Source: an uncultured Akkermansia sp.
Lineage (GTDB): Bacteria > Verrucomicrobiota > Kiritimatiellia > RFP12 > JAAYNR01
DNA: 64,000 bases
Direction of reading: 5' to 3'
NCBI GenBank assembly: GCA_964580075.1
Contig: CAZOJL010000004.1
Span: 262-64,261 of the forward strand
Position 1 is the first letter of the stretch. The number at the start of each line of letters is the position of its first letter. Shown piece after piece: positions 5,583-63,276 of the stretch. The translations under genes were made by a program, and so were the position numbers. The notes under the pieces are model-generated. The model was given only the letters and a program-made list of their open reading frames with translations, did no database searches and was not told the origin of the DNA.

Positions 5583-5671
5583 TTGGCGGAGGGAGAGGGA
5601 TTCGAACCCCCGGTACCTTGCGGCACGTCGGTTTTCAAGACCGATGCTTTAAACCACTCAGCCATCCCTCC
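5583..5671 (-). tRNA. tRNA-Ser (anticodon TGA)
   Basis: Reverse complement is GGAGGGATGGCTGAGTGGTTTAAAGCATCGGTCTTGAAAACCGACGTGCCGCAAGGTACCGGGGGTTCGAATCCCTCTCCCTCCGCCA. It has a 7-bp acceptor stem, a long variable arm, anticodon loop CTTGAAA, a GGTTCGAATCC T-loop and an encoded CCA. Confidence 0.85.
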
Positions 5672-36039: not shown

Positions 36040-37539
36040 CTATTGGCCGGCGGGCGTCCATTCGCCATCCGCGGGTTGATTGGTTTCGCTCCCCTTCGCT
36101 TCGGCGAGAAACCCGTCAAACGTCCACGTCCAATAGAGGAAGCGCTGCCGCCCGACCGGATCATCGGCCAGTTCGACCCGCGCCTTGTCCCGCAACGCCA
36201 TCATCTGGACCACCACATCGGGAGGCCAGATCTTCTGGTACATGGCCGGCGGGATGCGCCCTTGATCCGCCAAGCCGCCCTTCACGGTGTCCCAGCGGGC
36301 GCACTGCAGCCGGATCAGTTCCCGCACGGTGCCGCCGGCCTGGCCGTAGAGCCGACGGCACATCGCGTCGAGCACGGCGTCCACGTCCAGTTCCGGATTC
36401 CAGAGCGCCTTCATCCAGACATAGAGCGTCGGCGCGGAAGTCGTCCAGTCGGCCATGATGCCGCCGTTGATGAACGTCCCGGCGAGCACCGTGCGGTTCG
36501 TCCGGTAGAATTCGCACACGAGGTGTGGGTACTGCACGGGGCCATACGTCCAGCCGCTGCCGCGGTCCCAGGCGTCCTCACACCCCTGGAGGAGATAGGC
36601 CAGCGTGTTCGTGGAGCTGTAACAGAGCATGCTCAGATGCGGTGTTCCGTCAGCCTTCTGCTGAAACATGTCGTGCAGCTCGGGATGCTTGGACCACTTG
36701 CTCTCCCACTGCTTCCAGAGTTTCTGCGGCTCGTGAACCTTCACCTGGTAGGGCCAACTGTTGCCCTCGCGCACCAGCGGCAAATAGTCAGCCATGTCCA
36801 CCTTCGCCACGTCATCGGGAATGGCGCCCGGCGCGAAGGGGAGAGGCTCCTTGTCGAACCAGCGTGCGTTCTGCGGCAGCGGCCATCCGGCTTTCGGATG
36901 GAACAGGCGCTGGCGGAAAACGGGCTGATCCTGATAGGCAACCGGGGGGATGACGAGCGAGGCGTGGGTGACGAGGGTTCTCCCGCCGAGGTCCGTCGGC
37001 CAGTACCAGCGCACGCCGACAAAGCGCTCCAGGAAGTCCGCCACGGCCCAGGCCGTGCCTTCGCTGGCCCAGTAAGCCCAGCGATTGCTCCCTGTCGGCA
37101 GCGCCTGCGTGCTCCCCACGAGATAGACGCGGTTGGGGGCGGTCTTAACAACAAACCCCTCGAACGGCAATGTCGCCGCGTCGATGCCGGCCTGGCGCGT
37201 CTCCTCGCAATCGCCAATCACGATGGCGGGCTGGTCCACCGCCGGCGGCTCGAACACGCGTTCGAACGTGGCGCCGGTGCTCAGGCGAACGACCTCCAGC
37301 AGCTCGTCCACCAAACGCGTGAGCGTCGCGCTGGGTTTGGGGTCGGCAACGAAGATCACGGCCCGTGCCGTGCCGTTGCGCGCCAGCTCGACCGGCGCAT
37401 GCACTGGCGCCGTGAGCCACGTCACGGGCGTCAGGTCGCGCGGTTTGAGTTCGTCGCCGGCCAGCGTCGGCAGCACCAGCGCGGCCGAAAAGGCCACGAG
37501 TTGCACCATCTGCAGTCTGTATAGTCTTGTTTTTCTCAT
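36040..37539 (-). CDS. secreted DUF4838-family protein (putative glycoside-hydrolase-like)
   Basis: 499 aa with a signal peptide. It is strongly paralogous to the N-terminal 600 aa of ORF 6046..10242. Its start overlaps the stop of the upstream glycine-rich gene (ccATGa). Confidence 0.6.
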   Translation of the reverse strand: MRKTRLYRLQMVQLVAFSAALVLPTLAGDELKPRDLTPVTWLTAPVHAPVELARNGTARAVIFVADPKPSATLTRLVDELLEVVRLSTGATFERVFEPPAVDQPAIVIGDCEETRQAGIDAATLPFEGFVVKTAPNRVYLVGSTQALPTGSNRWAYWASEGTAWAVADFLERFVGVRWYWPTDLGGRTLVTHASLVIPPVAYQDQPVFRQRLFHPKAGWPLPQNARWFDKEPLPFAPGAIPDDVAKVDMADYLPLVREGNSWPYQVKVHEPQKLWKQWESKWSKHPELHDMFQQKADGTPHLSMLCYSSTNTLAYLLQGCEDAWDRGSGWTYGPVQYPHLVCEFYRTNRTVLAGTFINGGIMADWTTSAPTLYVWMKALWNPELDVDAVLDAMCRRLYGQAGGTVRELIRLQCARWDTVKGGLADQGRIPPAMYQKIWPPDVVVQMMALRDKARVELADDPVGRQRFLYWTWTFDGFLAEAKGSETNQPADGEWTPAGQ

Positions 37540-41614: not shown

Positions 41615-42811
41615 ATGAGGACAGGCATTATCGCAAACGGATGTGTGATCAATCCGGGGTGCCGTCAACCAGGCGCATCGGTCGTGGTGCAGGGAGATAC
41701 GGTGGTGCAGGTGGTGGCTGCGGGCGGCGCGTTGCCCGGGGCCGACTGGATTTACGATGCCGTTGGGCGGTATGTGGTTCCCGGTTTTATCGACATCCAC
41801 ACACACGGCGCGGCCGGATATGACATCACCGACGAGTCTCCGGAAGCGGTGTCGGCCGTGGCCCGGGCCAAGCTGGCCGAGGGCGTAACGCGCTTTTGTC
41901 CGACAACCCTCACCCTCTCTGAGAAACGGCTGGCTGCCACGATGCGCCGGATTGCGGCGTACCGTGAGGACGCGCGGTTCAGCCAGGTGGTGGGGGTTCA
42001 TCTGGAGGGCCCGTTCATCAACCCCTCCTGCCTGGGGGCTCAGAACCCGGCCCATGTGCGTCCGCCCGATCTGGCCGAAGTGCTGCGGCTGCACGCGATC
42101 TCGCCGGTGACGCAGGTGACGTTTGCGGTCGAGATGGACGGCGGGGTGGCATTCGCAGCCGCGCTGCGTGAACACGGAATCATTCCGGCATGCGGTCACA
42201 GCCGGTGCGGGTGCAAACAGTTTCAGAAAGCGTATGCCGCGGGACTGCGGCATCTGGCCCATTATTGCAACCAGATGTCGCCCCTGCACCACCGGGACAT
42301 CGGGTTGGTGGGGGCGGGGCTGCTCTATCCCGACGTCACGTTGGAGCTGATTTGTGACACGGTGCACGTGTGTCCCGAGATGCTGGCGCTGATATTCGCG
42401 CACAAGCCGCGTGAGTCGCTTCTGCTGATCACCGACTCGATTCGCGCGAGCCACCTGCCCGATGGGCCGTCGTCGCTGGGCGGACTGGACGTGGTCGTGC
42501 GTGACGGTGAAGCGCGATTGGTTCAGACCGGCGCACTGGCCGGTTCGACGCTGCGGATGAACGTCGCGCTCCGACAGGCGGCGCGTATTAGTGGGCTGCC
42601 GCTGGAGGCGGTCATCGGCATGACCGCGCACAACCAGGCAAACGAATTGGGCCTCGCCAGCCGGTTCGGCCGGCTGGCGCCGGGGTGTGCGGCCGACGCG
42701 GTCGTGCTCGATCCGGAAACGTGCGACGTCGAGGCGGTTTACGTAGACGGGGAACAGCGGTTCCCCCTGACGGGTACCGGGGTTAACAGGTCAATGCCGC
42801 CGCGGGCATGA
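41615..42811 (+). CDS. nagA: N-acetylglucosamine-6-phosphate deacetylase
   Basis: GFIDIHTHGAAG metal site and VHLEGPFI, about 398 aa, amidohydrolase fold. Confidence 0.8.
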   Translation: MRTGIIANGCVINPGCRQPGASVVVQGDTVVQVVAAGGALPGADWIYDAVGRYVVPGFIDIHTHGAAGYDITDESPEAVSAVARAKLAEGVTRFCPTTLTLSEKRLAATMRRIAAYREDARFSQVVGVHLEGPFINPSCLGAQNPAHVRPPDLAEVLRLHAISPVTQVTFAVEMDGGVAFAAALREHGIIPACGHSRCGCKQFQKAYAAGLRHLAHYCNQMSPLHHRDIGLVGAGLLYPDVTLELICDTVHVCPEMLALIFAHKPRESLLLITDSIRASHLPDGPSSLGGLDVVVRDGEARLVQTGALAGSTLRMNVALRQAARISGLPLEAVIGMTAHNQANELGLASRFGRLAPGCAADAVVLDPETCDVEAVYVDGEQRFPLTGTGVNRSMPPRA

Positions 42812-46837: not shown

Positions 46838-47986
46838 TTACTTCGCCCATGAAAATGCGCGCGCCGCCTCGATGACCCGATCGTACGCATCCGGCTCGAT
46901 ATTGGAAGGCAGCGGGCTTCCGGTGCAAAGAATGAAGGGCGCCCCCGGCCCGGACTGCCGAATTTGCCGCTCGACTTCCCGTTTGATTGCATCCGGCTGA
47001 TTCCGCATCAGCAGCAATTCGGAATCGAGATTTCCGAAAAGACAGCGGTTTGGACCAAAGACGTGCCGGACTTTCTGAACCGTGAGGTCTATGCCTTTCC
47101 GAGGCTGTTCAAAAGCAAAAGCGTCCACGGGAACAGTGGCCTGCTGTTTCAGCACCGGCAGAATATCCCCTTCGTTCCAGAGGATTGTTTTAAGACCGGC
47201 CGCCCGGGCTGCGGCCACAATCGACACCTGACACGGCAACGCGAAGCGTTCGAACAGTTCCGGCGAGATGATGTCGCATGAAGCCCATCCATCAGCGATG
47301 AACACCGCCTCTGCCCCGGCTTCCTTCAGTTGCCGCATCCGGGTGTTGTGATCGGCACCCATCAGGGCACAGACATACGTGAACAACGCGGGGTTTTCCA
47401 TCATCATGAGCATGGATTCTTCGAAGCCGAGAGCATAGCAACTATAGACATACGCCGGCGAATAGTGCGGAAGTATCAGCGTACGATCGCCGGCCTCGCG
47501 GATCAGCCTGGTCAGACCGGACAAATAGGCATCCCCCCAGCCGGCAAAGGTTGGGATCAACCGGTCGGTTCGAAAGGTTGGGATCAGCCGGTCGGCATCC
47601 GCAAAGGTTTCGACACGGCCAACCGATCCGCACCCCTTCGCCCCGGTCTGCAGTTCGTACAAAGAAAGGCTGTCTTTGGTTAACCCGAAAACCATGCCGG
47701 TGTTGTCATTTCTGATGACCCATTTCGTCGCGTCTTCATCCAGCAATGTCGGTTCCAGCGGGCCCTCGATCGCTCCGGTATAGAAGATCACGTCCACCGC
47801 ATGCCGATCCAGCAAAGCCCGATGCGCCTTGTGCCACGTATCACTCCCGCCGACCGCGAGCTGCCAAGGTTCAATACCCGCCACTTTCCAGGTGTAATCG
47901 AATTCCCAGTTGAACAACGCGACCGGTACCCGATCCGTCGCGACACCCGATAGCGCCTGCAGCGCAATCTGTTTTCCATTTTCCAT
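46838..47986 (-). CDS. uroporphyrinogen-decarboxylase (URO-D/MtaA-like) family protein, second paralog, intact
   Basis: 382 aa; C-terminal GAPFILCTGSPLPSNIEPDAYDRVIEAAR typical of the URO-D/methyltransferase family. It contains an in-frame 27-bp tandem duplication (47546-47599; DRLIPTF-RT-DRLIPTF). Confidence 0.6.
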   Translation of the reverse strand: MENGKQIALQALSGVATDRVPVALFNWEFDYTWKVAGIEPWQLAVGGSDTWHKAHRALLDRHAVDVIFYTGAIEGPLEPTLLDEDATKWVIRNDNTGMVFGLTKDSLSLYELQTGAKGCGSVGRVETFADADRLIPTFRTDRLIPTFAGWGDAYLSGLTRLIREAGDRTLILPHYSPAYVYSCYALGFEESMLMMMENPALFTYVCALMGADHNTRMRQLKEAGAEAVFIADGWASCDIISPELFERFALPCQVSIVAAARAAGLKTILWNEGDILPVLKQQATVPVDAFAFEQPRKGIDLTVQKVRHVFGPNRCLFGNLDSELLLMRNQPDAIKREVERQIRQSGPGAPFILCTGSPLPSNIEPDAYDRVIEAARAFSWAK

Positions 47987-48280
47987 ATCAGTACAACGGG
48001 ACCTTCTGCGGAACCGTCTCCTTTTGTGAATTTAGTGTGGCAGAAACGGGAATCCGTGTCAATTTTCCAAGCATTTCTAATTTTGTCCTGATCATCGCGG
48101 TACTGGTGTTGCTGTTCGTCCGGCCCAAAGCCGCTGGATGATGTGTTTCTGTGTTGATCTTGACGTTTCCACCGGCTTCTGTCACGCTTCACACCATGAA
48201 TTCGCTATGCAAGACCGGTCCGGCATGATTACTGGCTCTGTGGGCCGGTGTCGGACGAAAAGCGATTTCTTATCACTTAT

Positions 48281-50632
48281 ATGAAAAAACACTCATTTGA
48301 CAACGATTGGCTTTTCGACTTAGGCGATGTGGGTCAGGCCGCGAAAGCCTACGAGGACGCGTCCTGGCGCAAGCTGGATCTGCCGCACGACTGGAGCATC
48401 GAACTGCCGCGCAGCAAGGACAACCCCAGCGGGGCGTCAGGCGGGTACGTGAGCGAAGGTGTGGGTTGGTATCGGAAGCATTTTCACGCGCCGCGCGAGT
48501 GGAGCGGTCAATGCGTGATGATCGAGCTCGAGGGTGTGTACCGCGATGCGGAGGTCTGGCTGAACGGCTATGCGCTCGGCGTGCACCCCTACGGCTACAC
48601 CACCTTCGCGCTGGACCTGACACCGTACCTGGAACTTGATGCAGAGAACGTCCTGGCGGTGCGCGTGAGCAACGCGCCGCACGGGCACACGCGCTGGTAT
48701 TCCGGATCAGGCATCTATCGGCACGTCTGGCTGCTGACCGCGCCTCGCGTTCATGTGGCACACCGGGGCCTGGTGGTCACGACGCCTGAAGTCGCCGTCA
48801 AGGCGGCGGTCGTAGAGGTGCGCACGACGGTGGAGAACCGGACGGACGCGGACCGTGCGGTGGTGGTGCGATGGCGGGCCATCGGACCGTCGGGGAAGAC
48901 GATAGCCAAGGGCGAGAGTCGTGGAAAGGTCCAGGCGGCGGCGACCACGGAATTCCTGCAACGGCTGGCCGTGCGTGCGCCCACGCTCTGGTCGCCCGAT
49001 ACGCCCCAACTCTACCGGATGGAGACGGAGGTACGTGACGGCCGGAACCGGCTCGATGGTGATTCGACGACCTTCGGCATCCGCTCGATCGCCTTCAATG
49101 CCGAGCAGGGGTTCGTGCTGAACGGGCAGCCGCTGAAAATGCGCGGTGGTTGCGTGCACCACGATTGCGGGCCTCTCGGCGCCGTATCGATCGACCGGGC
49201 CGAGGAGCGCAAGGTCGAACTGCTCAAGGCCAGCGGCTTCAACGCCGTGCGTTGCGCGCACAATCCGCCGGCCTCCGCCTTCCTCGACGCCTGTGATCGA
49301 CTGGGTATGCTCGTGATGGACGAGGTCTTCGACGGTTGGCGCATGAACAAAGAGCGGAATTTCCACGACTACCACCGCTTCTTCGACATGTGGTGGCAGG
49401 AAGATCTGGACAGCATGGTCCTGCGCGACCGTAATCACCCGTCGATCGTGGTCTGGAGCATCGGTAACGAGGTGGAGGAACGCAGCCTGCCGGAAGGCGC
49501 CGCCATTGCGGCCAAGCTCGCCGCCCGTGTGCGTGAGCTGGACCCGACGCGGCCGGTCACAGCCGGGATCTGTGCCATCTGGGGCGACCCCGCCTGGAAT
49601 AAAACGGATGCGCTGTTCGCGCATCTCGATGTCTGCGGCTACAACTACCTCGTCGATGTGTACCGCCCGGATCATCAGCGGTTCCCGAAGCGTGTCATCC
49701 TGTCGACGGAATCCTTTCCGTCGCCGCAGTACGTCTTCGATTACTGGAAGGCGGTCGAGGATTTGCCGTGGGTGGCCGGTGATTTCGTCTGGACGGCGCT
49801 CGACTACCTCGGCGAGGCGGGAATCGGACACGACTTTCTGGAAGGCGATCAGTTGCCCTTGAAAATCGGCTGGCCCTACACGGTCGCCAACTGCGGCGAT
49901 ATCGACATCTGCGGCGGCAAGCGCCCGCAGTCCTACTACCGGGACGTGCTCTGGAAACGCATGGAGACGCCCTATATCGGCGTGCGTGCGCCGGTGGCCG
50001 AGGGCCGCAAGGCCGTGGCCTCCATGTGGGGCTGGGTTGACTTGCAGACAAGCTGGAACTGGCCGGGGTGCGAGGGGAAGCCGTTGGCGGTGGAGGTCTA
50101 CTTCGACTGCGACGAGATCGAGCTGTTCCTCAACGGCCGGTCGATCGGCAAGGCGCCGGCCGGTCTGGAGGCGAAGCACCGGGCGCTCTTCAACGTGGCG
50201 TTCGAACCCGGCGAACTGAAGGCCGTGGCCAAACGCGCCGGCAAACCGGTGGCGAAGGCTGCGCTGACCACGGCAGGTGCTCCCCACGCCATACGGCTGA
50301 AGGCGGACCGGTCCCGCATCCGGGCCGATCGCAACGACCTGGCGTACATCACGGTTGAGCTTTGCGACAGCAACGGGCACCTCGTGCCTGACTCCGCCGA
50401 TACGATCCGGTTCGCGCTCGATGGGCCTGGCGAGATCGTCGCCGTGGCCAATGCCGATCCTTACAACACGGCGCCGTTCCGCGGTCGGGAGCACCGCCTG
50501 TGGCGGGGGCGCGGCCTGGTCGTCCTGCGTCCGAAGGGCCCGGTCGGGGACATGGTGCTGCATGCCATTGCGGATGGGGTGCAGCCCGGCAAGGTTGCAG
50601 TGTCCACGTCCGACACGAGGGCATCCCTTTGA
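48281..50632 (+). CDS. glycoside hydrolase family 2 (beta-glucuronidase/beta-galactosidase-like)
   Basis: DLPHDWSIE in the sugar-binding domain; NAVRCAHNPP and WSIGNEV in the TIM barrel. Start at MKKHSF. No signal peptide. Confidence 0.75.
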   Translation: MKKHSFDNDWLFDLGDVGQAAKAYEDASWRKLDLPHDWSIELPRSKDNPSGASGGYVSEGVGWYRKHFHAPREWSGQCVMIELEGVYRDAEVWLNGYALGVHPYGYTTFALDLTPYLELDAENVLAVRVSNAPHGHTRWYSGSGIYRHVWLLTAPRVHVAHRGLVVTTPEVAVKAAVVEVRTTVENRTDADRAVVVRWRAIGPSGKTIAKGESRGKVQAAATTEFLQRLAVRAPTLWSPDTPQLYRMETEVRDGRNRLDGDSTTFGIRSIAFNAEQGFVLNGQPLKMRGGCVHHDCGPLGAVSIDRAEERKVELLKASGFNAVRCAHNPPASAFLDACDRLGMLVMDEVFDGWRMNKERNFHDYHRFFDMWWQEDLDSMVLRDRNHPSIVVWSIGNEVEERSLPEGAAIAAKLAARVRELDPTRPVTAGICAIWGDPAWNKTDALFAHLDVCGYNYLVDVYRPDHQRFPKRVILSTESFPSPQYVFDYWKAVEDLPWVAGDFVWTALDYLGEAGIGHDFLEGDQLPLKIGWPYTVANCGDIDICGGKRPQSYYRDVLWKRMETPYIGVRAPVAEGRKAVASMWGWVDLQTSWNWPGCEGKPLAVEVYFDCDEIELFLNGRSIGKAPAGLEAKHRALFNVAFEPGELKAVAKRAGKPVAKAALTTAGAPHAIRLKADRSRIRADRNDLAYITVELCDSNGHLVPDSADTIRFALDGPGEIVAVANADPYNTAPFRGREHRLWRGRGLVVLRPKGPVGDMVLHAIADGVQPGKVAVSTSDTRASL

Positions 50633-50674: not shown

Positions 50675-51595
50675 TCAGCTTCCTTTCTTGACGGGCACAT
50701 GCGTGGCGGCGGCGACCGCCGCCTCCCATGCAGCGACAGTGACGGCCTCGGGGAAGGCGGAGTCGTCCATGGGAGCGGGCTTGCCGATGCGCTCGCTCTT
50801 CGACTGGCCGAGCGGATGGTACGGCATGAGGTTGACCTCGAGAATATGGTGAAGTCGGTTCGCCAAGGCTGCGATCCCGGCAAAATGGTCATCCCTGGCG
50901 TTGAGCCCGGGGATGATCGGGCAGCGCAAGATGGTCTTCGCCCCGAGCTGGTCGAGGCGGATCAGGTTGTCGACGATGACCTCCCGCAGCGCACCGGTAT
51001 ACTCCTGATGACGGGCGGGATCGGTCTCTTTGTAATCGTAGAGGAAGAGATCGACCAGGGGCATGATCTGTTCCAGCCGGTCGAATGGGGCAAAGCCGGA
51101 GGTCTCGATGCAGGTGTGGAGTCTGCGCCGCTTGGCCTCCTGGAGCAAGGCAAGGGTGAATTCGAATTGGAAGAGCGGTTCACCGCCCGAGATGGTCATG
51201 CCGCCGCCCGAGGTCTCATAAAATGGCTTGTCCTTCTCGACCTCCGCGATCACTTCCGCGACGGTCATCTCCCGTCCGATGAGTTCGAGGGCCTTGGCGT
51301 AGCACTTCTCGGTGCAGACGCCGCAGCGCTGGCAAAGCTCCCGGCGGAAGGTGCGGTTCCCGTCCTCGCCCATGACGTGTCCGCCATGCGGACAGGCCTG
51401 GAAGCAGTGTCCGCAGCCGATGCACTTGGAGGGGATGAGCGAGATTTCGGCGGCTCTTTCCTGCGACTCCGGGTTGTGACACCAGAGGCAACGCAGGGGG
51501 CACCCCTTCAGGAAGACGGTCGTCCGTATGCCGGGTCCGTCGTGGATAGAGAACTTCTGGATGTCAAAGACGATGCCGTTCATGTCTATAATCAT
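50675..51595 (-). CDS. glycyl-radical enzyme activating enzyme (radical SAM)
   Basis: CPLRCLWCHNPES (CxxxCxxC) plus ferredoxin-like CIGCGHCFQACP ... CQRCGVCTEKC clusters. 306 aa. Its start overlaps the stop of the glycyl-radical enzyme gene by 4 bp. Confidence 0.8.
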   Translation of the reverse strand: MIIDMNGIVFDIQKFSIHDGPGIRTTVFLKGCPLRCLWCHNPESQERAAEISLIPSKCIGCGHCFQACPHGGHVMGEDGNRTFRRELCQRCGVCTEKCYAKALELIGREMTVAEVIAEVEKDKPFYETSGGGMTISGGEPLFQFEFTLALLQEAKRRRLHTCIETSGFAPFDRLEQIMPLVDLFLYDYKETDPARHQEYTGALREVIVDNLIRLDQLGAKTILRCPIIPGLNARDDHFAGIAALANRLHHILEVNLMPYHPLGQSKSERIGKPAPMDDSAFPEAVTVAAWEAAVAAATHVPVKKGS

Positions 51596-53940
51596 GACGT
51601 GTGCTTGGTGCGGGCGATGATGTGCTCCTGAAGATCGGGGGGAACCAGTTTGAACTTCTGGGAGAAGCCGGCGACACGCACCGGGATGTCCCCGTAGTGT
51701 TCCGGATCTCTTTGCGCCTGGCGGAGTTTATCGACCGTGACGATGTTGAACTGAAGCTGGCCGATGTCCATCGCCAGGGCCGCACGTATGAGCGTGGTCA
51801 AGCGTTCGACACCCGCCTCCCCCTCGACCACGGCCGGATCGAGCTCGATGATCGCCGCCGACGCCCCCGCCGCCCGGTCGTGTGGCAGGCGCGCGAGAGA
51901 CTTGAGCATGGCGGTGGCGCCGCGCTCGTCGCGCCCCTGTTGTGCCGACAACGAATAGGCAATGGGTTCTCCGGCCTTGCGACCGTCCGGGGTGGCGCCC
52001 AGGCATTTTCCGAAATGCAGGTTGCAGAGAAAGGAGAAGAGATGAACGAAGTAGCGGCCGCCGAGGGGGCTGCGCAGGGTGTCCATCAGGTCGATGAAAT
52101 GGTCGTCGACGCGTTTCGCGAGCAGGTCCACCTCCTCGGTGTCGTTGCCGTACTTCGGCGCGTCCCGCAGCAGTCTCTGCCGCAGCTCTTCCTTACCGGC
52201 GAAATCGGTTCGCAAGGCGTCCAGCAACTCAGCGGTGCCGAGCTGCTTCTCGTCGTAGACCAGCTTCTTGATCGCCATCAGGGAATCGGCGGTGTTGGCC
52301 GTGCCGAGGAGGCAGATGGAGTGGTAGTTGTAGACGGCGCCTCCGTCGGTAATGTCGCGCCCGCGGGCGATGCAATCGTCGGTCATGACCGACCAGCAGG
52401 GGAGGGGGCCGCGCTCACGCTGAAGCAGCTCGCCGCGGTTACAGTGATAGGCCATGCGCCTGGCGAAGAATTCGACCTGCGCCTGGTAGGCGTCGAAGAG
52501 GCTTTCGAACGTCGGATGGCTGCCGAGCGCGCCGGTCTTCGGCCCCAGTTGGACGCCGGTCCGCGGATCGGCGCCGTCGAACAAGGCCAGCTCGAGACAC
52601 TTGGCGGCGTTGAACCAGCCCGACACGGCGTGCGGGTTGGCCTTGCCGGGGATGGTCAACTCGATGCAGCCAATGGGGGCGTAGTTCCGTGCGTCCTCGA
52701 CGGCAATGCCACGGTCGGTCAAGGCCTTGATGAAGCAGGCGTCATTAAAGAGGAAGGGGATGCCGCCGCCCTCGACGATCAGTTCGGCGGCGAGACGGAG
52801 GAAGCGGGCCGGCGAGTTTTTGCTGACGCGGATGGAGACGTCGCGGATGAACCCCACGTTCCGGGTGGCCTCAAGGATAAGGTAACTCAAGTCGTTGACG
52901 GCGCAGTTGCCGTTCCGGTCCACGCCGCCCAGCGTGATGGCCTGCACGTCGTAATCGAGATAGAGCTTGCAGGCCAGTTCCTCCATCAGTTCGAGCGCCG
53001 CGGCCCGCGTGAGCGAGCCGTCCGCGAGACCGGCCTGGCAGTAGGGGAAGAGGATCTGGTCGAGGCGACCGATCGAGTTGGCGTTGATGTGGTCCTCGCC
53101 GCAGGTGAGAATGTGCGCGAACCACAGCGCCTGGACCGCCTCATGGAAGTTGCGGGCGCCGCGGGCCGGCACCTGCGCGCAGACTTCGGCCATCCGCTCC
53201 AGCCGTGCCTTGTCTTTCGCATCGGCCGTAGCGGCCGCCCGCTCCGCCGCCAGTTCCGCATAGCGCTTGCCAAGGAGGATGCCCGCCTCGCAGACGCTCC
53301 GCGCCCCACGCCAGAAGTTCTCTTTCCGCGGAAAATCGGGGTCAATCAGGTCGCCGGACGCCAGAGCCGCATCAATCTCCTCCAGGATTCCGGCGAAACC
53401 GATGCGTATGACTTTGGCAATGTCGCGAACGCTATGGTTTTCAACCCACCCAATGGACCAAAAGACGTCCATGCCTGTGGCTCCACCCCAGCCACCCTTG
53501 CCGGACTCGCTGCCTGGCGCGGGGATCCCGACGTCTACCCGGAACGACCCCCTCGGCACTGCGGTGTCGGCGTCACTATTCCAAGCCCCGGCGCAGCGCC
53601 GGACCTTCTCCGCCTCCGCCGCGTCGATCCCGAACTCGGCAAAACGCACGGCGTACGCGGGGTTGTTTGAAGCGCCCAACCCGGTCTCCCAACTAACCGA
53701 TGGCCGCAGGTGCTCGCCGGCCAAGGTCCAGTGCGGGCCGATGTCGACGGGCGCCAGAACAACCAGTTCGCGCAAGAACGCCGCCCGCCGCTGGACGCGC
53801 GATTGCTCCGCCGCGAACGACCGCCACAGGGCCACATCACACAGCAGCGGATTGGCATTTCCCACGAAAGCGCCCTGCCGTGCCATGGCATCGGCCCGCA
53901 GGGTGGCGATGCGCGTTGAGAGATGATCGGATGCGATCAT
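51592..53940 (-). CDS. glycyl radical enzyme, eliminase/dehydratase class (C-x-E active-site motif)
   Basis: 782 aa. C-terminal glycyl-radical motif IPVRVAGFSQKF; thiyl-radical loop APIGCIELT (Cys-x-Glu, as in choline TMA-lyase, glycerol/propanediol dehydratase, HypD and IslA, and unlike the CC of pyruvate formate-lyase). Confidence 0.75.
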   Translation of the reverse strand: MIASDHLSTRIATLRADAMARQGAFVGNANPLLCDVALWRSFAAEQSRVQRRAAFLRELVVLAPVDIGPHWTLAGEHLRPSVSWETGLGASNNPAYAVRFAEFGIDAAEAEKVRRCAGAWNSDADTAVPRGSFRVDVGIPAPGSESGKGGWGGATGMDVFWSIGWVENHSVRDIAKVIRIGFAGILEEIDAALASGDLIDPDFPRKENFWRGARSVCEAGILLGKRYAELAAERAAATADAKDKARLERMAEVCAQVPARGARNFHEAVQALWFAHILTCGEDHINANSIGRLDQILFPYCQAGLADGSLTRAAALELMEELACKLYLDYDVQAITLGGVDRNGNCAVNDLSYLILEATRNVGFIRDVSIRVSKNSPARFLRLAAELIVEGGGIPFLFNDACFIKALTDRGIAVEDARNYAPIGCIELTIPGKANPHAVSGWFNAAKCLELALFDGADPRTGVQLGPKTGALGSHPTFESLFDAYQAQVEFFARRMAYHCNRGELLQRERGPLPCWSVMTDDCIARGRDITDGGAVYNYHSICLLGTANTADSLMAIKKLVYDEKQLGTAELLDALRTDFAGKEELRQRLLRDAPKYGNDTEEVDLLAKRVDDHFIDLMDTLRSPLGGRYFVHLFSFLCNLHFGKCLGATPDGRKAGEPIAYSLSAQQGRDERGATAMLKSLARLPHDRAAGASAAIIELDPAVVEGEAGVERLTTLIRAALAMDIGQLQFNIVTVDKLRQAQRDPEHYGDIPVRVAGFSQKFKLVPPDLQEHIIARTKHTS

Positions 53941-54026: not shown

Positions 54027-57230
<3,204 letters not shown>

Positions 57231-57450: not shown

Positions 57451-59145
57451 TCACCGCACCTGCACGATCGTATTCGGCTCGACCGTGTGCATGATCCCGT
57501 TCACGGCGCTTCGCACGGGAGCATCGGTGGGGTTGTAGAGGAATGCTCGGCCGCTTTCAAAAACAACACCGCATACGCCGTCAATCTCGGTGCAGACCGC
57601 GGGAATCGGCGCCTTCCCACAGGGCGGCTCGACATAAAACCACTTGCGCAGAAGCGCGAGCGTGTCATCTTCGCCGGTGGCGCTCACGCCGTACAGAAGT
57701 CCTGCTTTGCGGAACTCTGGGCCCCTGTTCCCGAATAGGAGCGCCCCTTCGACGGACTCGATGCTGCCGGTGTAGAGGAATATGCCGCCTTCTTCCACCC
57801 AGCTCCAGATCTTCTCCGCGGTGGAGGCTTCCATGACATTGCCCTCCAGATGGATGAGATAGTCGTACACCTCGAGCGCACCGTCGGAGATCAAGCGCTC
57901 GTCGGCCAGGTCGAAGTGCACGAGATGGCGCAGCTTGCCGCCGATGCGCATCATCTCGCGCGCCAGGCCCTGCGTGTAATTCAAGCGCAGCCAGGTGGAC
58001 GGCAGCAGCACGCACGCCTTGACGACCGGCTTGTCCTGCATCATGAACGATTCATATTTCACAAGCTGTGCCGCATTGTCCGGCTGCACGGGATTACTGT
58101 GCCAATCCCAGAAGCCTTCGAGCCCCGTGCACAATGCCTCAAACACGCGTGCGCAGTAGCGCTTGGCGTCGATGCCCGAAGGGGGCTCGCTCCACATGGG
58201 CACACCGTAGAACTTGCACGCCGTGGAGATCTGGACAAGCTGCCCGCAGGCGTTGCCGAGATAATCCATGAAGCCGCCGTGCGTCGAGCGCACCCTGACG
58301 CCTTCCTGTGCGGCAAGCTTCACCAGCGCGGTGTTGTCCTGGCAGATGCGCAGGTCCATGTCGGCGCCGCCGAGGGGCAGGAGCTTGTACGGGGTGTCGA
58401 AATGCCGGTTTGCGCTTCGCAGCCATTCGCGCGTGTAGCGGACCATTCCGTCGTAGTACCATTCGACGAAATCAAGGAAGTGCCGCCGGGCTGCCGGAGT
58501 GGCGGGATAGACAACATCCTCATCAGACGCCAGGGTTGTGCCCCAGCGCGCGTTGAGCCCGTGGATTCCGCCGAATGTGGCGAGCATGGTCCGGCGAAAA
58601 TCGGCACGTGCCTTCGGCTCGGCGCACCAGAACCCGTAATGGTTGTGCGTATTGCCGAAGCGCTTCTGCCAATCCGCCCGCTGGCCGGGATCGTTTACAC
58701 GGCAGCCCGCCATGACCATGCACTCGCCGTAGTCGCCGTGAATCCCCGTGAACATCGCGGCGATAGTATCTGTGCCGCGGCCGTAGTGGCTTTCCAGGGC
58801 GGCCATCCCGTATTCCAGGAACTCCAGCGCCAACGGTTCCCACAGTGAAAAAGCCTCGACCGATTCGTTGTCCTCGAGACAGGTCATGCGGTCGTATCGA
58901 TGTGCCGTGCGGTACCACACGGGCGGGAACGCGAAATGCGGGAAGAAGATCCAGTGTGCCCCGGCGTCCTTCACCTGCTTGAGTTTTGCATCGAACGCCG
59001 CCCAGTCCCAGATGCCCGGGGCGGTCTCGTTCGTACTGATGTGGTCGCTGTCGGTCTGAAAGAAGGTAAAGCCAAGCTCCAGACAGCGCTTGAAGTTGTC
59101 CGGTTCGCCTGCGTAAGTGCCACGGATCATCGGCTTTAATGACAT
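57451..59145 (-). CDS. putative TIM-barrel glycoside hydrolase (GH42/GH35-like); family uncertain
   Basis: 564 aa cytoplasmic protein. Coding-like composition, immediately upstream of the GH2 gene in the same orientation. The N-terminal region (GIWDWAAFDAKLKQVKDAGAHWIFF...PPVW) resembles GH42-type beta-galactosidase N-terminal domains. Confidence 0.4.
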   Translation of the reverse strand: MSLKPMIRGTYAGEPDNFKRCLELGFTFFQTDSDHISTNETAPGIWDWAAFDAKLKQVKDAGAHWIFFPHFAFPPVWYRTAHRYDRMTCLEDNESVEAFSLWEPLALEFLEYGMAALESHYGRGTDTIAAMFTGIHGDYGECMVMAGCRVNDPGQRADWQKRFGNTHNHYGFWCAEPKARADFRRTMLATFGGIHGLNARWGTTLASDEDVVYPATPAARRHFLDFVEWYYDGMVRYTREWLRSANRHFDTPYKLLPLGGADMDLRICQDNTALVKLAAQEGVRVRSTHGGFMDYLGNACGQLVQISTACKFYGVPMWSEPPSGIDAKRYCARVFEALCTGLEGFWDWHSNPVQPDNAAQLVKYESFMMQDKPVVKACVLLPSTWLRLNYTQGLAREMMRIGGKLRHLVHFDLADERLISDGALEVYDYLIHLEGNVMEASTAEKIWSWVEEGGIFLYTGSIESVEGALLFGNRGPEFRKAGLLYGVSATGEDDTLALLRKWFYVEPPCGKAPIPAVCTEIDGVCGVVFESGRAFLYNPTDAPVRSAVNGIMHTVEPNTIVQVR

Positions 59146-59682: not shown

Positions 59683-59758
59683 TGGTAGGCCGCGCGGGGA
59701 TCGAACCCGCGACCACATGATTAAAAGTCATGTGCTCTACCAACTGAGCTAGCGGCCT
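59683..59758 (-). tRNA. tRNA-Lys (anticodon TTT)
   Basis: Reverse complement is AGGCCGCTAGCTCAGTTGGTAGAGCACATGACTTTTAATCATGTGGTCGCGGGTTCGATCCCCGCGCGGCCTACCA: cloverleaf with anticodon loop CTTTTAA and a GGTTCGATCC T-loop. A downstream hairpin ggaacgg-accttc-ccgttcc followed by attttcttcc (59625-59655) is a plausible terminator. Confidence 0.85.
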
Positions 59759-59799: not shown

Positions 59800-61413
59800 T
59801 CAAGTTCGGTCTAAAATGATGCCGTTTCGACGGCCCGTAAAAAGACCGTTGTCATACGTGACCGTGCCGTTGACCACTACCTGTCGCATGCCGGTGGCAA
59901 GCCGGTGGGGGGCGCTGTAGGAGGCCGTGGCCGTGAAGGTGGCGGCGTCCCACACCGCCACATCGGCGCAGTAGCCCGGCGCAATCCGTCCCCGTTCGGT
60001 GAGTCCGAACGCCTCGGCGGCGAGTCCGGTCATGCGGTGGATCGCCTCGGTCACATCCATCAGCCGCTCGTCCACCGCCAACCTGAAGAATCGCGGCATG
60101 GTGCCGTAGGCGCGCGGATGGGGATGATCCTCGCCGAGCACGCCGTGCGGCGCGCGCAATGAGGCGTCACTTCCAACCATCACCCAGGGCTGACGATAGA
60201 TCCGCCGCAGATTATCTTCCGACAGTCCACCGAAAAACGCGCCTGTCTTGGCCCGTCCTTCGCGAATCAACCACACCGCCGTGGCGCCGGGTGATTCCCC
60301 ACGCTGTCGTGCGGCGTCTGTGAGGGTCATGCCGCAATAGGCTTTGCTGGCGTCGGAATAGCAGCCGCCGACGATCACACCCGACCAGTCGGTGTCGGAT
60401 GCATCGAGCTCGGAAACAACCTGCGCCCGCGCCGTGGGATCGTCCAGGGAGCGCAAAATCACCTCTGAGCCGCCGTCCGAGGCCCAGCCCGGCAAGATGA
60501 TGTCGAGTTCGGTGGCGCCGAACGTGTAGGGATAGCGGTCGGCATGGATGAACAGACCGGCGGCGCGCGCGCATTCAATCCGCTCCAGAACCGCGTCGAG
60601 CTTGTGCCAGTTGCGCGGGTGCGCGGTCTTGAGATGTGAAATCTGCGTGCGGATGCCGGTCGCGCGGGCCAGATCGAGAACCTCGTCGAGCGCCTCCAGC
60701 AGCCCGTCGCCCTCGCTACGCATGTGGGTGGCGTAGCCGACGCCCCTGGCCGCCGCCGCAGCGGCAAGCGCCAACACTTCGCCGGGCGTCGAGAATTTCC
60801 CCGGCTGGTAGACCAACCCGGTGCTCAGCCCCGACGCTCCCTCGTCGAGCGCCTGCTCGAGATTGCGCACCATGCGCGCCGTCTCGTCTGCGTCGGCCGG
60901 ACGCGGCGCATAACCCATGACCCCTTTGCGGAGGGTGTTGTGGCCCACGTAGAGCTTGGCGTTGATGGCGGGGCGGACTTGCTCCCACAGCGCCCGATAC
61001 TCGGCGACCGTGCGCCAGGTCGGCCCCGGTTCGCCGCACGGGCGGCGGCGGCCGCCGCCGCCGGCCAGTTGCGGATAGACCCTGCCCGCCCAGTCCGAGG
61101 CGAGGCAGATATCGTCCAGTGCCGGCACGCCGCTGCCGCCGCACTGGCCGACCACTTCGGTGGTGATCCCTTGCGCGACCTTGCTCGGCGCGTCGGGCTC
61201 CAGCAGAAGATAAGTGTCGGAGTGCGAGTGGGCGTCGATGAAGCCCGGCGTGACCAGGCAGCCCGTGGCATCGATGCATTCGACCGCCTCGGCCGCGCCG
61301 AGGTCGCAGACCGCCGTGATGCGGCCGCCGTTCACGCCGACGTCGGTTCGGACGGGCCGCGCCCCGCGCGTACCGTCGATCACCGTCCCGCCCACTAGGA
61401 TGAGGTCAAACAT
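59800..61413 (-). CDS. amidohydrolase-family protein (N-acyl-D-amino-acid deacylase / D-aminoacylase-like)
   Basis: Start at MFDLILVGGTVIDG; PGFIDAHSHSD metal-binding motif; about 537 aa. Confidence 0.7.
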   Translation of the reverse strand: MFDLILVGGTVIDGTRGARPVRTDVGVNGGRITAVCDLGAAEAVECIDATGCLVTPGFIDAHSHSDTYLLLEPDAPSKVAQGITTEVVGQCGGSGVPALDDICLASDWAGRVYPQLAGGGGRRRPCGEPGPTWRTVAEYRALWEQVRPAINAKLYVGHNTLRKGVMGYAPRPADADETARMVRNLEQALDEGASGLSTGLVYQPGKFSTPGEVLALAAAAAARGVGYATHMRSEGDGLLEALDEVLDLARATGIRTQISHLKTAHPRNWHKLDAVLERIECARAAGLFIHADRYPYTFGATELDIILPGWASDGGSEVILRSLDDPTARAQVVSELDASDTDWSGVIVGGCYSDASKAYCGMTLTDAARQRGESPGATAVWLIREGRAKTGAFFGGLSEDNLRRIYRQPWVMVGSDASLRAPHGVLGEDHPHPRAYGTMPRFFRLAVDERLMDVTEAIHRMTGLAAEAFGLTERGRIAPGYCADVAVWDAATFTATASYSAPHRLATGMRQVVVNGTVTYDNGLFTGRRNGIILDRT

Positions 61414-61711
61414 GCGTGGGATCAGTGTAGCCGAGCGGTGGACGGGAGACAATGCCGAAGTAATGGGCTGTCGTAGTCATGGGCCCACGATGTCCAAACG
61501 GGGAATCATGGTAGTGTCGGGGGATTAGGGTAGTTGACTCCTCATCGAAGGCATCCTATGTTACACCCCAGTATTGTTTTTGAGAGGTGCTCGCGACTGG
61601 CTGTTGCACAGGATCTGAGCACGATATGTTTACCAATAGCATTCACGGAGTCTGTGACCGGACGCAAACAGCGGCCGGCATGGGCTCATCGATTAGAAGA
61701 AGGAATACACC

Positions 61712-63276
61712 ATGAACAAGCCCAATATCGTCTATTTTTTGTCGATGACATGGGTTATGGTGACGCCTCGTGCCTGAACCCTGCCGGGAAGATCCGGACG
61801 CCGAACATCGATCGACTGGCCAGCGAAAGGATGGTCTTCACCGATGCGCATGCCAGCTCGGCGGTCTGCTCGCCGTCACGCTATAGCGTTCTCACGGGGC
61901 GCTACAACTGGCGGTCGTCCTTGCAGCAGGGGATCGTCGGCCTATACGGCCAGCCCCTCATCGCCGCCGATCGCCTGACCGTCCCGGGATTCCTGAAGCA
62001 GCACGGCTATCATACCGCCTGCATCGGCAAGTGGCATCTGGGCCTGGGGTGGGATTTTGAGCCAGATGCCGAGAATTTCTACCCCGGAGGATTCCAGCGT
62101 GATCGCGCGGGTGTCGCCGGCGTGACGGACTTGGAAGCCACGCCCGAACAACAGGCTTGCTGGCGGGAGGCGTTCTCCAAGCCCACCACCGGCGGCCCGA
62201 CCACGCGCGGCTTCGATTACTACTTCGGGGTCGATGTCCCCAACTGGCCACCCTACTGCTTCATCGAGAACGACCGAACCGTCGGTATCCCGTCGGAACT
62301 CCTCCCGTCACGCCTGGTTGGCAACAACCTGGCGAGCTTTTCCGGCCCGGCGATGCCCTACTGGCACTTCGAACAACTGCTTCCCACCTGGGCGGCGTAG
62401 GCGGACCGCTACATCCGGGAGCGCTCGGCGACGGGCGAGCCCTTCTTCCTGTGTTTGCCGATGACCTCACCCCATACGCCGCTGTCCGTCAATAAGCCCT
62501 GGATTGGGAAGAGCGGCTTGAACAACCTCTATGCCGACCTTGTGATCGAGACCGACGACGTTCTCGGACGAGTTCTTGCCTCCCTGGAAGCGCACGGGGT
62601 TGCCGACAACACATTGGTCATCTTTGCCAGCGACAATGGTTGCGCACACTACATTGGCGCAAAGGAAATGGAGGCGCAGGGGCACTTCCCCAGCGGCGGC
62701 TATCGCGGCTACAAATCCGACGCCTGGGACGGTGGTCATCGCATCCCCTGCATTGCACGCTGGCCGGGCATGATCAAACCCGGAACGGAGTCTGGCGCGC
62801 TCGTCTGCCTTTCGGACCTGATGGCGACTTGCGCCGACATTCTTGGTCAGGATCTGCCGGACCCTGCCGGGGAGGACAGCATCAGCATGATGCCTCTGTT
62901 CAGGGGCTCCTGCCCGTCCGGGCGGACCACCGTGGCGCATCATTCCATTGAAGGCAAGTTCGCGATCCACGACGGCCGCTGGAAGCTCGTCCTCTGCCCC
63001 GGCTCGGGCGGATGGACCTACACCGATGCCGCCGCCGCCAAGGCCGGCCTGCCCCTGATCCAGCTTTACGATATGCAGGCCGATCCCGGCGAGAGGCACA
63101 ACCTGCAGGGCGAACACCGCGACAGGGTTAAGGAACTCGTCGCCCTGCTGAAGAAGCAGGTTGCTGACGGGCGCAGTACTCCTGGCACGAGGCAGCACAA
63201 CGATGTGCCGGTGGACATCTGGAAGCTCGACACGATGCCCGGGGCGAACCCGGCGTTACTGGATGACTACGGATAA
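61712..63276 (+). pseudogene. Cys-type sulfatase disrupted by a 1-nt frameshift in a T6 run (61735-61740) and an in-frame TAG (62398-62400)
   Basis: ATG at 61712 (RBS gaagga) reads MNKPNIVYF, then shifts frame at tattttttg. The downstream frame carries FFVDDMGYGD and the formylglycine signature CSPSR (SAVCSPSRYSVLTGR). ORFs 61534..62400 and 62455..63276 are in the same frame, separated only by the TAG (..PTWAA*ADRYIRERSATGEPFFLCLPMTSPHTP..). Confidence 0.6.

Follow-up and report, generated by a model that had tools for sequence, protein, structure and literature searches.

An uncharacterised clade of CXE-type glycyl radical enzymes with a distinctive predicted pocket in glycan-associated loci of uncultured bacteria

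The window analysed here (the whole 64-kb stretch of DNA) encodes an oxygen-sensitive glycyl radical enzyme (GRE) that, as judged by sequence comparison, belongs to a discrete, widespread, strongly conserved and uncharacterised clade with a predicted pocket unlike that of every characterised GRE. Since the active site matches that of no known member, the reaction is probably one that has not yet been described. Our leading proposal, which we put forward tentatively, is that the enzyme may be a C–O eliminase of new specificity acting on a small neutral hydroxy compound derived from glycans, with a 1,2-propanediol-like diol originating from a deoxyhexose as the foremost, still unproven, candidate.

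The enzyme, its activase and their genomic setting

The GRE gene (positions 51592–53940, minus strand) encodes a 782-amino-acid protein with matches to the PFL-like (PF02901, 463 bits) and Gly_radical (PF01228, 69.6 bits) Pfam domains of the superfamily. Translation and domain content bear out the sequence-only reading, which had proposed a GRE of this length with the glycyl-radical motif RVAGFS (residues 755–760, radical glycine G758; 51661–51678, minus strand) and a G-C-I-E active-site loop. The latter is located at G424-C425-I426-E427 (52660–52671, minus strand) and provides the thiyl-radical Cys and the general-base Glu; with its single Cys in the Cys-x-Glu arrangement (C425-I426-E427), the enzyme is of the CXE type, a motif defined for the 1,2-eliminase and isomerase classes of GREs (PMC13450708). 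Both radical motifs persist on alignment, the glycine loop in keeping with the superfamily pattern RVxG[FWY]: among the 28 orthologs of alignment A1, R755, V756, A757, G758 and S760 of the glycine loop show no variation, and the Cys loop GCIE, which aligns with GCVE of glycerol dehydratase (GD), 1,2-propanediol dehydratase (PD) and HypD, is invariant. A Foldseek search with the AF2 model (pLDDT 84, pTM 0.88) matched approximately 45 GRE chains at TM 0.79–0.85, as expected for the ten-stranded barrel. The best fold matches are GD and PD, and glycerol dehydratase 1r8w (TM 0.85) is also the top PDB match by sequence (419 bits).

The GRE stop codon overlaps the start codon of the next gene in an ATGA (51592–51595, minus strand), the translational coupling that had been claimed. 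The downstream partner (50675–51595, minus strand) is a radical-SAM GRE-activating enzyme of 306 amino acids with Radical_SAM and Fer4 domains; for TIGR02494, the profile of GRE activating proteins, it reaches 347.9 bits, well above the cut-off of 174. It carries the CX3CX2C cluster motif CPLRCLWC (C32/C36/C39; 51479–51502, minus strand), followed at residues 58 and 88 by two more cysteine motifs, CX2CX2CX3C, of the ferredoxin type. The GRE therefore has its own adjoining, overlapping activase gene, and the pair is predicted to constitute a functional GRE system. While this supports a capacity for anaerobic metabolism, the strict anaerobiosis suggested earlier is an overstatement, because facultative E. 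coli carries the GREs PflD and YbiW.

A LacZ/EbgA-type GH2 β-galactosidase gene (54027–57188, minus strand; 1053 amino acids; Pfam GH2 N/C, LacZ_4 and Bgal_small_N, NCBIfam PRK10340 at 981 bits) precedes the GRE by 86 bp, in the same orientation. Ahead of it lies the gene for a putative clan GH-A glycosidase of 564 amino acids (57451–59145, minus strand) with weak GH42/GH14 similarity: its homologues carry PF02449/PF01373 matches, and the protein itself has just a weak GH14 match and no NCBIfam match. This is probably the first gene of a GH-GH-GRE-activase unit, bounded upstream by tRNA-Lys(TTT) (59683–59758, minus strand) and the terminator-like hairpin that follows it (59650–59632). Neither glycosidase has a signal peptide, as judged by inspection of the N-termini, in agreement with the proposed cytoplasmic glycosidase setting. 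On the other side, a GalA/GalB-type GH2 β-galactosidase gene (48248–50632, plus strand; Pfam, NCBIfam) converges with the activase gene, and beyond it lies the gene for a URO-D-fold protein (46838–47986, minus strand; Pfam URO-D 1.3e-25, weak MtaA/CmuA matches). The window also contains NagA (41615–42811), a second amidohydrolase (59800–61452) and a sulfatase gene (61534–63276, plus strand). Thus, the two GH2 enzymes, the URO-D protein and the sulfatase gene named by the sequence-only reading are indeed present, but the sulfatase gene is interrupted by one in-frame TAG and the GH42-like label of the third glycosidase comes only from weak profile matches. The reported absence of shell and propanol/aldehyde dehydrogenase genes within at least 20 kb extends to the whole window, where we found no homologue of BMC shell proteins, Fe-ADH, ALDH, FucA/I/K or RhaA/D. 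A GRE-associated microcompartment (GRM) locus was rejected on a PduA-seeded jackhmmer search for BMC-H, which was negative both in the 64-kb window and in all 80 related loci.

Separation from characterised glycyl radical enzymes

The GRE scores below every NCBIfam equivalog cut-off for characterised GREs: 462.7 bits against TIGR01774 (PFL2-3 / glycerol dehydratase subfamily; cut-off 678.2), 438.8 against the HypD equivalog HMM (1100), 416 against HpsG NF048011 (1000), 359 against PflD PRK09983 (1109) and 98.5 against pyruvate formate-lyase TIGR01255 (994). The profile score likewise speaks against CutC, the choline TMA-lyase: 355 bits against TIGR04394 (cut-off 1050). The protein is 33–39% identical to GD, PD, HypD, HpzG, IseG, PflD and YbiW and forms a separate branch in the tree. 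Its 39% identity to GD can be set beside GD–PflD (43%) and GD–HypD (41%), two pairs that differ in function. The clade does not appear in a June 2026 list of characterised GREs (PMC13450708).

We assigned the pocket by sequence alignment to solved structures rather than from coordinates; GRE barrels are known for strand shifts between enzymes (PMC8473560), and the β3 alignment is ambiguous. By this assignment the lining comprises W165, H169, N286, A287, V332, A438, V439, W442, H633, F635 and F637, with no Arg or Lys among these positions and with two conserved acidic residues, D283 and D331, close by. On this basis we predict a compact pocket of mostly hydrophobic character. Summed over ten lining positions, side-chain volume is 1485 Å3, as compared to 1433 for PD, 1386 for GD, 1292 for YbiW and 1268 for PflD; this estimate, although crude, favours a small substrate over a hexose.

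GD (Clostridium butyricum DhaB1, 1r8w/1r9d) shares with the GRE the fold, the RVAG[YF]S and GC[VI]E loops, and the general acid His164, which aligns with H169 and is invariant across the clade. As in the window, its activase (DhaB2) is a neighbouring radical-SAM protein that carries two auxiliary clusters, and neither system is tied to a microcompartment. However, the 39% identity applies to the catalytic region, the N-terminal 168 residues having no sequence match, and GD Asp447, His281, Ser282 and Tyr640 are replaced by V439, N286, A287 and F635, as are Gly638 by His and Ser642 by Phe. The four-residue set is common to GD, the Roseburia inulinivorans PD 5i2a and PD 9rco in our alignment. The PDs (5i2a/5i2g; 9rco) have in common with the GRE the fold, the CXE motif, the His, a pocket that is hydrophobic on one side and, through the relatives of the GRE, a plausible link to fucose/rhamnose catabolism, but they retain all four residues that the GRE has lost. 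PDs are moreover encoded in microcompartment loci (PMC5311937), whereas the clade lacks shell genes in the window and the 80 related loci. HypD ranks second by NCBIfam score, its fold match is of similar quality, and its essential Asp339 aligns with D331; its Asp278, Phe340, Tyr450 and Thr645, on the other hand, correspond to N286, V332, W442 and F637, which sets the GRE apart from HypD. In the sulfonate C–S lyases IslA/IseG/HpsG, which we also rejected, the Arg-Gln-Arg triad (IseG R187, Q191, R676; numbering offset of 20, verified on Cys466) is replaced by W165, H169 and H633.

By profile, tree and pocket residues, then, the GRE falls inside none of the characterised clades. The earlier view that this is neither a choline nor a canonical propanediol module holds, with HMM scores far below cut-offs and GD/PD contact residues not kept, and HMM scores and contact residues likewise separate it from the hydroxyproline and sulfonate enzymes. 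The sulfonated or sulfated substrate also suggested earlier is unlikely, given the Trp/His/His in place of the triad and a lining free of Arg and Lys.

Distribution and gene neighbourhoods of the clade

A protein search returned more than 100 relatives at 59–90% identity, and we located orthologs, approximately 50–90% identical, in 80 genome loci, all from MAGs, spanning Lentisphaerota, Kiritimatiellia, Planctomycetota, Hydrogenedentota, Latescibacterota, Armatimonadota and Chloroflexota. A pocket signature of 41 positions is identical in 35 full-length orthologs and near-identical in the rest; 65 full-length orthologs show one of its 12 commonest patterns, and the core signature D283-N286-A287-N288 / D331-V332-Q333 / V439 / F635-F637 reaches approximately 10 further representatives at 50% identity. 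JGI and NCBI name some of the homologues ‘formate C-acetyltransferase’. Related records bear the sample names of freshwater lakes, e.g. Lac Pavin, and the idea of fucoidan as the source glycan received no specific support.

The neighbourhoods are variable, with exo-glycosidases, UroD-like proteins, AraC/IclR regulators, Fe-ADH, ALDH and fucose/rhamnose genes. UroD-like genes are the commonest non-regulatory neighbours (16–17 of the 80 loci, overrepresented in the 4 kb around the GRE). GH2 lies within 10 kb in 4 of the 80 and directly adjoins in 3, so the GH2 flanks are not a conserved feature, although the proposed glycan connection itself is upheld by relatives repeatedly tied to glycan, especially fucose/rhamnose, genes. 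GH95 is found in 3–4 loci (L010, L015, L045), GH29 in one (L016), and GH38 (L013, L063) and GH2 (L039, L044) are each co-oriented with and close to the GRE in two. Raw counts, uncorrected for background frequency, are 5/80 for Fe-ADH, which adjoins orthologs in L007, L008, L022 and L049, and 3/80 for ALDH. A FAH protein resembling 2,4-didehydro-3-deoxy-L-rhamnonate hydrolase is present in 3/80 loci and FGGY-type sugar kinases in 2/80; a true RhaA (L042), a class II aldolase (L040), GlpK beside AraC-GRE (L080) and MttB-like genes (L013, L017) also occur, amine-related neighbours are rare, and the 80 loci yielded no FsaA-type aldolase. We see no single conserved metabolic partner: by raw count, any given fucose/rhamnose-linked family is present in only 1–5 of the 80 loci. 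Members of at least five other GRE families, likewise orphan, are encoded beside the clade.

Candidate reactions and their meaning

By the steps inferred from the GRE family, the activase would use its [4Fe-4S] cluster and S-adenosylmethionine to generate the radical on G758, which would in turn yield the thiyl radical on C425. The thiyl would take a hydrogen atom from a hydroxyl-bearing substrate carbon, E427 would deprotonate the hydroxyl on that carbon and H169 would protonate the vicinal oxygen leaving group, with C–O bond cleavage giving a carbonyl product; in GD, the CXE Glu and His164 are the base and the acid, respectively (PMC13450708). Because the pocket is compact, mostly hydrophobic and devoid of Arg and Lys, the most likely substrate is a vicinal diol or ether that is small and neutral. 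It would be released during cytoplasmic glycan catabolism, and we rank a deoxyhexose-derived diol such as 1,2-propanediol first and glycerol second. Fe-ADH or ALDH enzymes may act next, reducing or oxidising the carbonyl product; their genes adjoin orthologs in other genomes and not in this window. The GRE would in effect work like a B12-independent diol dehydratase without belonging to that family and, with the GD/PD four-residue set replaced, such a mechanism would need other hydrogen-bond partners. Further points against a small diol are that the pocket aromatics could equally stack on a sugar ring, that the neighbourhoods share no one metabolic partner and that the window itself has no Fe-ADH, ALDH or fucose/rhamnose genes.

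A less probable reading is that the GRE acts on a monosaccharide or modified monosaccharide (a 6-deoxyhexose, anhydro-sugar or O-methyl sugar) freed by the co-transcribed cytoplasmic exo-glycosidases, opening the ring or eliminating an ether or hydroxyl, as YbiW and PflD do. These two are the only characterised GREs that act on carbohydrates, isomerising 1,5-anhydroglucitol-6-phosphate and 1,5-anhydromannitol-6-phosphate (PMC13450708), and as enzymes that share the CXE motif and the His with our GRE and cleave a C–O bond they provide a precedent. The co-oriented, close glycosidases here and in the GH2, GH95, GH29 and GH38 loci listed above point the same way, UroD-like and MttB-like neighbours could hint at methylated substrates, and the pocket combines four aromatics with Asn, His and Asp, as sugar-binding sites typically do. 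However, identity to YbiW/PflD is 34%, and the pocket positions of those two hold far smaller, more polar residues; the ten positions of the GRE are bulkier than those of PD and much bulkier than those of YbiW/PflD, and the polar equivalents of Asp447, Ser282 and Tyr640, kept in PflD, are lost. YbiW/PflD loci contain PTS and fructose-6-phosphate aldolase genes, whereas the search of the 80 loci gave no FsaA-type aldolase; FGGY-type kinases occur in only two of them, and the glycosidase partner changes family from locus to locus while the pocket is invariant.

That the GRE is instead a divergent member of the GD/PD family, i.e. a B12-independent glycerol or 1,2-propanediol dehydratase, is improbable: the best PDB and fold matches, the retained His164 equivalent and CXE motif, and the Fe-ADH and GlpK neighbours are all in line with it, but the TIGR01774 score lies well under its cut-off, the four residues common to GD, the R. 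inulinivorans PD and 9rco are all replaced, and identity to GD is lower than that between GD and the functionally different PflD or HypD. We consider still more remote the cleavage, in the manner of CutC/HplG, of a C–N bond in an amino alcohol or amino sugar (ethanolamine, aminopropanol, or hexosamine supplied by neighbouring deacetylases). While conserved D283 and D331 near the pocket, the latter aligned with the essential Asp339 of HypD, as well as NagA and the second amidohydrolase in the window and the MttB-like genes in two loci would fit, the position of the catalytic Asp278 of HypD is Asn, the amidohydrolases lie outside the GRE transcription unit, with the tRNA and hairpin between, and amine-related neighbours are rare. 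Finally, pyruvate formate-lyase, the function implied by the automatic JGI/NCBI names of homologues, is refuted by the sequence and has next to no likelihood: the TIGR01255 score is about a tenth of its cut-off, and the Cys loop shows one Cys and then x-Glu where PFL has its adjacent Cys-Cys pair.

GREs perform chemically hard anaerobic reactions, and every newly assigned clade has opened a new pathway, as seen for choline to TMA, hydroxyproline, isethionate to sulfite and anhydroglycolysis; according to a 2026 review, whole GRE clades still await experimental validation. The present clade is unusually well defined, with a pocket nearly invariant over at least seven phyla and an occurrence restricted to uncultured glycan-degrading anaerobes, and its compact, translationally coupled GRE-activase operon is a construct ready for expression. 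Knowing the substrate of the proposed C–O eliminase would show how these abundant degraders get rid of a glycan-derived intermediate without microcompartments or B12, and would give a foothold on the orphan GRE families encoded alongside. A broader conjecture, speculative and rather doubtful at present, is that the clade performs a reaction new to carbohydrate catabolism. One example would be a radical elimination in which a sugar of the deoxy, anhydro or O-methylated kind, or a polyol derived from a glycan, loses an oxygen substituent (hydroxyl, methyl ether or ring oxygen). If true, anaerobic glycan degraders in the PVC group and in several other phyla would have a cofactor-cheap way past a step that is chemically blocked; the GRE paralog families encoded nearby would in that case make up a broader, as yet unexplored set of radical enzymes for breaking down glycans, with the UroD-fold proteins as functional partners.

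A coupled glycyl radical enzyme and activase within a cytoplasmic glycosidase cluster

The 782-aa ORF at 51592–53940(-) encodes a glycyl radical enzyme (GRE) that matches the Pfam families PFL-like (463 bits) and Gly_radical (69.6 bits), its translation containing the Cys-loop stretch YAPIGCIELT and the C-terminal part IPVRVAGFSQKF. The next ORF (50675–51595(-), 306 aa) overlaps it by ATGA and encodes the radical-SAM activase, with Radical_SAM and 4Fe-4S Pfam domains, a CPLRCLWC motif, two CX2CX2CX3C motifs and a score of 347.9 against TIGR02494, well past the curated cut-off of 174. ORFs, overlap, domains and TIGR02494 thus confirm the translationally coupled GRE–activase pair proposed in the sequence-only reading.

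The pair lies within a cluster of cytoplasmic glycosidases, without a microcompartment. A LacZ/EbgA-type GH2 gene is located 86 bp upstream of the GRE gene on the same strand, and a GalA/GalB-type GH2 gene is convergent; the glycosidases adjoining the GRE lack signal peptides. The neighbours named earlier (two GH2 enzymes, a GH42-like enzyme, a UroD-family protein and a sulfatase) are all present, the GH42-like assignment of the 564-aa protein resting on weak GH42/GH14 matches of its homologues. The URO-D-fold protein is encoded at 46838–47986(-), and the sulfatase gene (61534–63276(+)) carries a single in-frame TAG at 62398–62400 (...LLPTWAA*ADRYIRE...). The sulfatase is also split into two ORFs in an independent assembly (metagenome contig L002). 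The gene may be a pseudogene, or the TAG could be a read-through or recoded stop. The claimed lack of shell and alcohol or aldehyde dehydrogenase genes holds across the 64-kb window: Pfam detected no microcompartment shell protein, Fe-alcohol dehydrogenase (Fe-ADH) or aldehyde dehydrogenase (ALDH) among the larger ORFs, and seeded jackhmmer searches of the whole window found none of these and no FucA/I/K or RhaA/D.

A tRNA-Lys(TTT) gene (59683–59758(-)) and a terminator-like hairpin part the GRE cluster from the upstream amidohydrolase gene, and the likely transcription unit therefore comprises the GH42/14-like, GH2, GRE and activase genes. Since our promoter and terminator scan returned counts no higher than in shuffled sequence, only the post-tRNA hairpin was used, as a weak boundary marker. 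The only Rfam matches in the whole window were the tRNA-Lys gene and a second tRNA gene at 5587–5671(-); a riboswitch, which could have hinted at a ligand, was not among them.

Elsewhere in the window, a single 559-aa ORF (28249–29928(+)) combines a LacAB_rpiB (ribose-5-phosphate isomerase B) domain at residues 5–141 with a full serine hydroxymethyltransferase domain at residues 153–529. In two secreted DUF4838 proteins (6046–10242(-), 1398 aa; 36040–37539(-), 499 aa), the segment immediately following the signal peptide is nearly identical (...LKPRDLTPVTWL.AP.H.PVE...), which suggests that the two are paralogous surface or secreted proteins.

Relation to characterised enzymes and the predicted pocket

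The GRE scored far below the cut-off of every NCBIfam equivalog model: HypD (439, cut-off 1100), HpsG (416, 1000), HpfG (377, 1000), PflD (359, 1109), CutC (355, 1050), indoleacetate decarboxylase (326, 1100) and PFL (98, 994), the last of which rules out a PFL annotation. The broad PFL2-3/glycerol dehydratase subfamily model was also missed (463 versus 678). The best solved relative is the B12-independent glycerol dehydratase of C. butyricum (GD; 419 bits, with the alignment starting only at residue 169). Over 599 aligned columns the GRE is 33–39% identical to GD, the GRE 1,2-propanediol dehydratase (PD; 9rco), HypD, HpzG, IseG, PflD and YbiW; by comparison, GD shows 43% identity to PflD and 41% to HypD. 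Neighbour joining places the GRE and its orthologs on a branch apart from the group that holds all of these enzymes, and the AF2 model (pLDDT 84, pTM 0.88) is about equally similar to GD, PD, HypD, HpzG, CutC and others (TM 0.81–0.85). The profile scores bear out the view that this is not a known choline or propanediol GRE. A June 2026 review (PMC13450708) lists GD, PD, HpfG, HypD, HpyG, HpzG, CutC, IslA/IseG and HpsG as characterised eliminases and HplG, YbiW and PflD as characterised isomerases, and notes that entire GRE clades remain unvalidated; full-text literature searching on glycyl radical enzymes found no paper on this clade.

Residue correspondences were taken from HMMER alignments to solved enzymes, with numbering verified on the catalytic Cys. 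The sulfonate triad of IslA/IseG is missing: W165, H169 and H633/F635/F637 align with IseG Arg187, Gln191 and Arg676/Val678/Phe680, respectively. Also missing are the hydroxyproline residues of HypD, with N286, V332, W442 and F637 at the positions of Asp278, Phe340, Tyr450 and Thr645; D331 aligns with HypD Asp339. Of the residues that GD shares with both PDs (5i2a and 9rco), four are not retained either: N286/A287 replace His281/Ser282, V439 replaces Asp447 (shared also with PflD) and F635 replaces Tyr640. V332 takes the place of the substrate-packing aromatic (GD Tyr339, PD Phe, HypD Phe340; roles from the literature). H633/F635/F637 align with GD Gly638/Tyr640/Ser642, and H169 with GD His164. 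All that the enzyme shares with the C–O-cleaving GREs (GD, PD, HypD, YbiW and PflD) is the Cys-x-Glu motif of the Cys loop and the general-acid His.

As judged by the aligned sequence, the lining positions are mostly hydrophobic or aromatic and include no Arg or Lys. On this and the missing triad, the sulfonated or sulfated substrate entertained in the sequence-only reading is rejected. The side chains at ten lining positions add up to a volume of 1485 Å3 (HypD 1437, PD 1433, GD 1386, YbiW 1292, PflD 1268), suggesting that the cavity is no larger than that of PD, an estimate that presumes an unchanged backbone, which work on IslA warns against assuming between GREs (PMC8473560), and that includes an ambiguous β3 alignment.

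Extent and gene neighbourhoods of the clade

The protein database holds more than 100 relatives with 59–90% identity to the GRE, and the exact protein is found on 12 metagenome contigs. Scanning a single genome for each species yielded 80 ortholog loci (L007–L086; ~50–90% identity), all in MAGs, from Lentisphaerota/Victivallales, Kiritimatiellia, Verrucomicrobiota, Planctomycetota, Phycisphaerae, Hydrogenedentota, Latescibacterota, Armatimonadota, Chloroflexota/Anaerolineae, KSB1 and Sumerlaeia; many of the records have lake-related sample names. A 41-position barrel-strand signature is identical in 35 full-length orthologs and nearly identical in the rest; together, the 12 commonest patterns account for 65 orthologs. 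Exhaustive searching across 1.8 billion representatives added ~10 further 50%-identity clusters (39–61% identity) that share the core D283-N286-A287-N288 / D331-V332-Q333 / V439 / F635-F637(-Y662). Given the near-invariant pocket signature, one conserved substrate for the clade would be the natural reading. The pair is bona fide and belongs to a conserved clade that lacks a characterised member and has a unique pocket.

L007 (CAMBQN010000009.1), the closest genome record with a GRE of 90% identity, bears the title 'Akkermansia muciniphila isolate MiH-14oct19-36'. Another record, also at 90% identity, carries the label uncultured Lentisphaerales, and the species name of L007 looks like a mislabel.

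To survey neighbours, we called and clustered ORFs in the 80 loci, ran seeded searches and recorded, for each family, the number of loci in which it occurs no more than 10 kb from the GRE gene. The neighbourhood is highly variable. An activase is present in only 20 of the 80 loci (directly adjacent in 11), though many of the contigs are short; the translationally coupled pair is thus not typical of the clade. UroD-like genes were found in 16–17 loci (directly adjacent in 5–7), AraC in 14, Gfo/Idh/MocA in 12 and IclR in 6, and BMC-H shell proteins in none of the 80. The commonest theme is 6-deoxyhexose release or catabolism together with aldehyde-reducing or -oxidising enzymes, each such family occurring in only 1–5 of 80 loci, as counts without background frequency: Fe-ADH in 5, GH95 in 3–4, ALDH and FAH (2,4-didehydro-3-deoxy-L-rhamnonate-hydrolase-like) in 3 each and GH29 in 1. 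Sulfatase was found in 5 loci, GH2 in 4 and GH38 in 2 or more. A jackhmmer count of 18 GH38 loci was discarded as an artefact of a seed ORF that ran into the 3′ end of the GRE gene; Pfam supports GH38 only in L013 and L063, directly or via the shared cluster. Individual loci contain a genuine L-rhamnose isomerase (L042), a class II aldolase (L040) or RhaM with two GH95 genes (L010). The order GntR–GRE–ALDH–activase–FAH is seen in two Phycisphaerae loci (L032, L047), and IclR–Fe-ADH–GRE in the closest relatives (L007, L008, L022, L049).

Among non-regulatory neighbours, proteins of the URO-D fold, which fall into several divergent subfamilies, are the most frequent (the window, L013, L014, L016, L017, L030, L054, L056, L063 and others), often encoded on the same strand directly adjacent to the GRE ortholog. 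UroD-like gene density within 4 kb of the GRE gene is about twice that further out. An assignment as MtaA-type methyltransferases was unsupported; as MtaA/CmuA matches are weak and no Cys is conserved, these proteins are probably not Zn-type methyltransferases. In L013 (5983–9650) and L017 (1–2816), MAGs labelled as different phyla, the GRE ortholog has genes for a non-Pyl MttB-family methyltransferase, a UroD-like protein and a Gfo/Idh/MocA oxidoreductase immediately upstream.

A further 26 GRE genes, which represent five or more other CxE subfamilies, are present in the 80 loci, often in tandem with a single activase; those tested fall below every curated NCBIfam cut-off. Five loci (L053, L007, L022, L049, L070) carry tandem arrays of 3–5 GRE genes in all, the window-enzyme ortholog included, with at most one activase; the extra members belong to subfamilies without characterised members, e.g. 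the 'CTEM' and 'CVET...GFWADGGGG' types.

Candidate reaction and substrate

By family knowledge, G758 would carry the radical, C425 would abstract the hydrogen atom, E427 would serve as the base and H169 as the acid for the oxygen leaving group. The enzyme may act in the manner of a diol dehydratase, yet it does not classify with GD or PD. From pocket and gene context we infer a small, neutral substrate derived from glycan catabolism, with 1,2-propanediol from fucose or rhamnose as the leading candidate and glycerol second. That the enzyme acts directly on a modified sugar, with YbiW and PflD as the precedent, seems rather unlikely, and C–N cleavage of an amino alcohol is considerably more doubtful still. 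A possible handle is L080 (7498–12253), from a MAG of Victivallis vadensis, a species with a cultured type strain; here a glycerol kinase (GlpK) gene passing its curated cut-off lies next to, and divergent from, AraC and the GRE ortholog (~48% identity).

The strictly anaerobic physiology read earlier from the pair is too strong a claim, because facultative E. coli carries both PflD and YbiW. The clade is a well-defined orphan among glycyl radical enzymes, and its GRE–activase operon is expression-ready.
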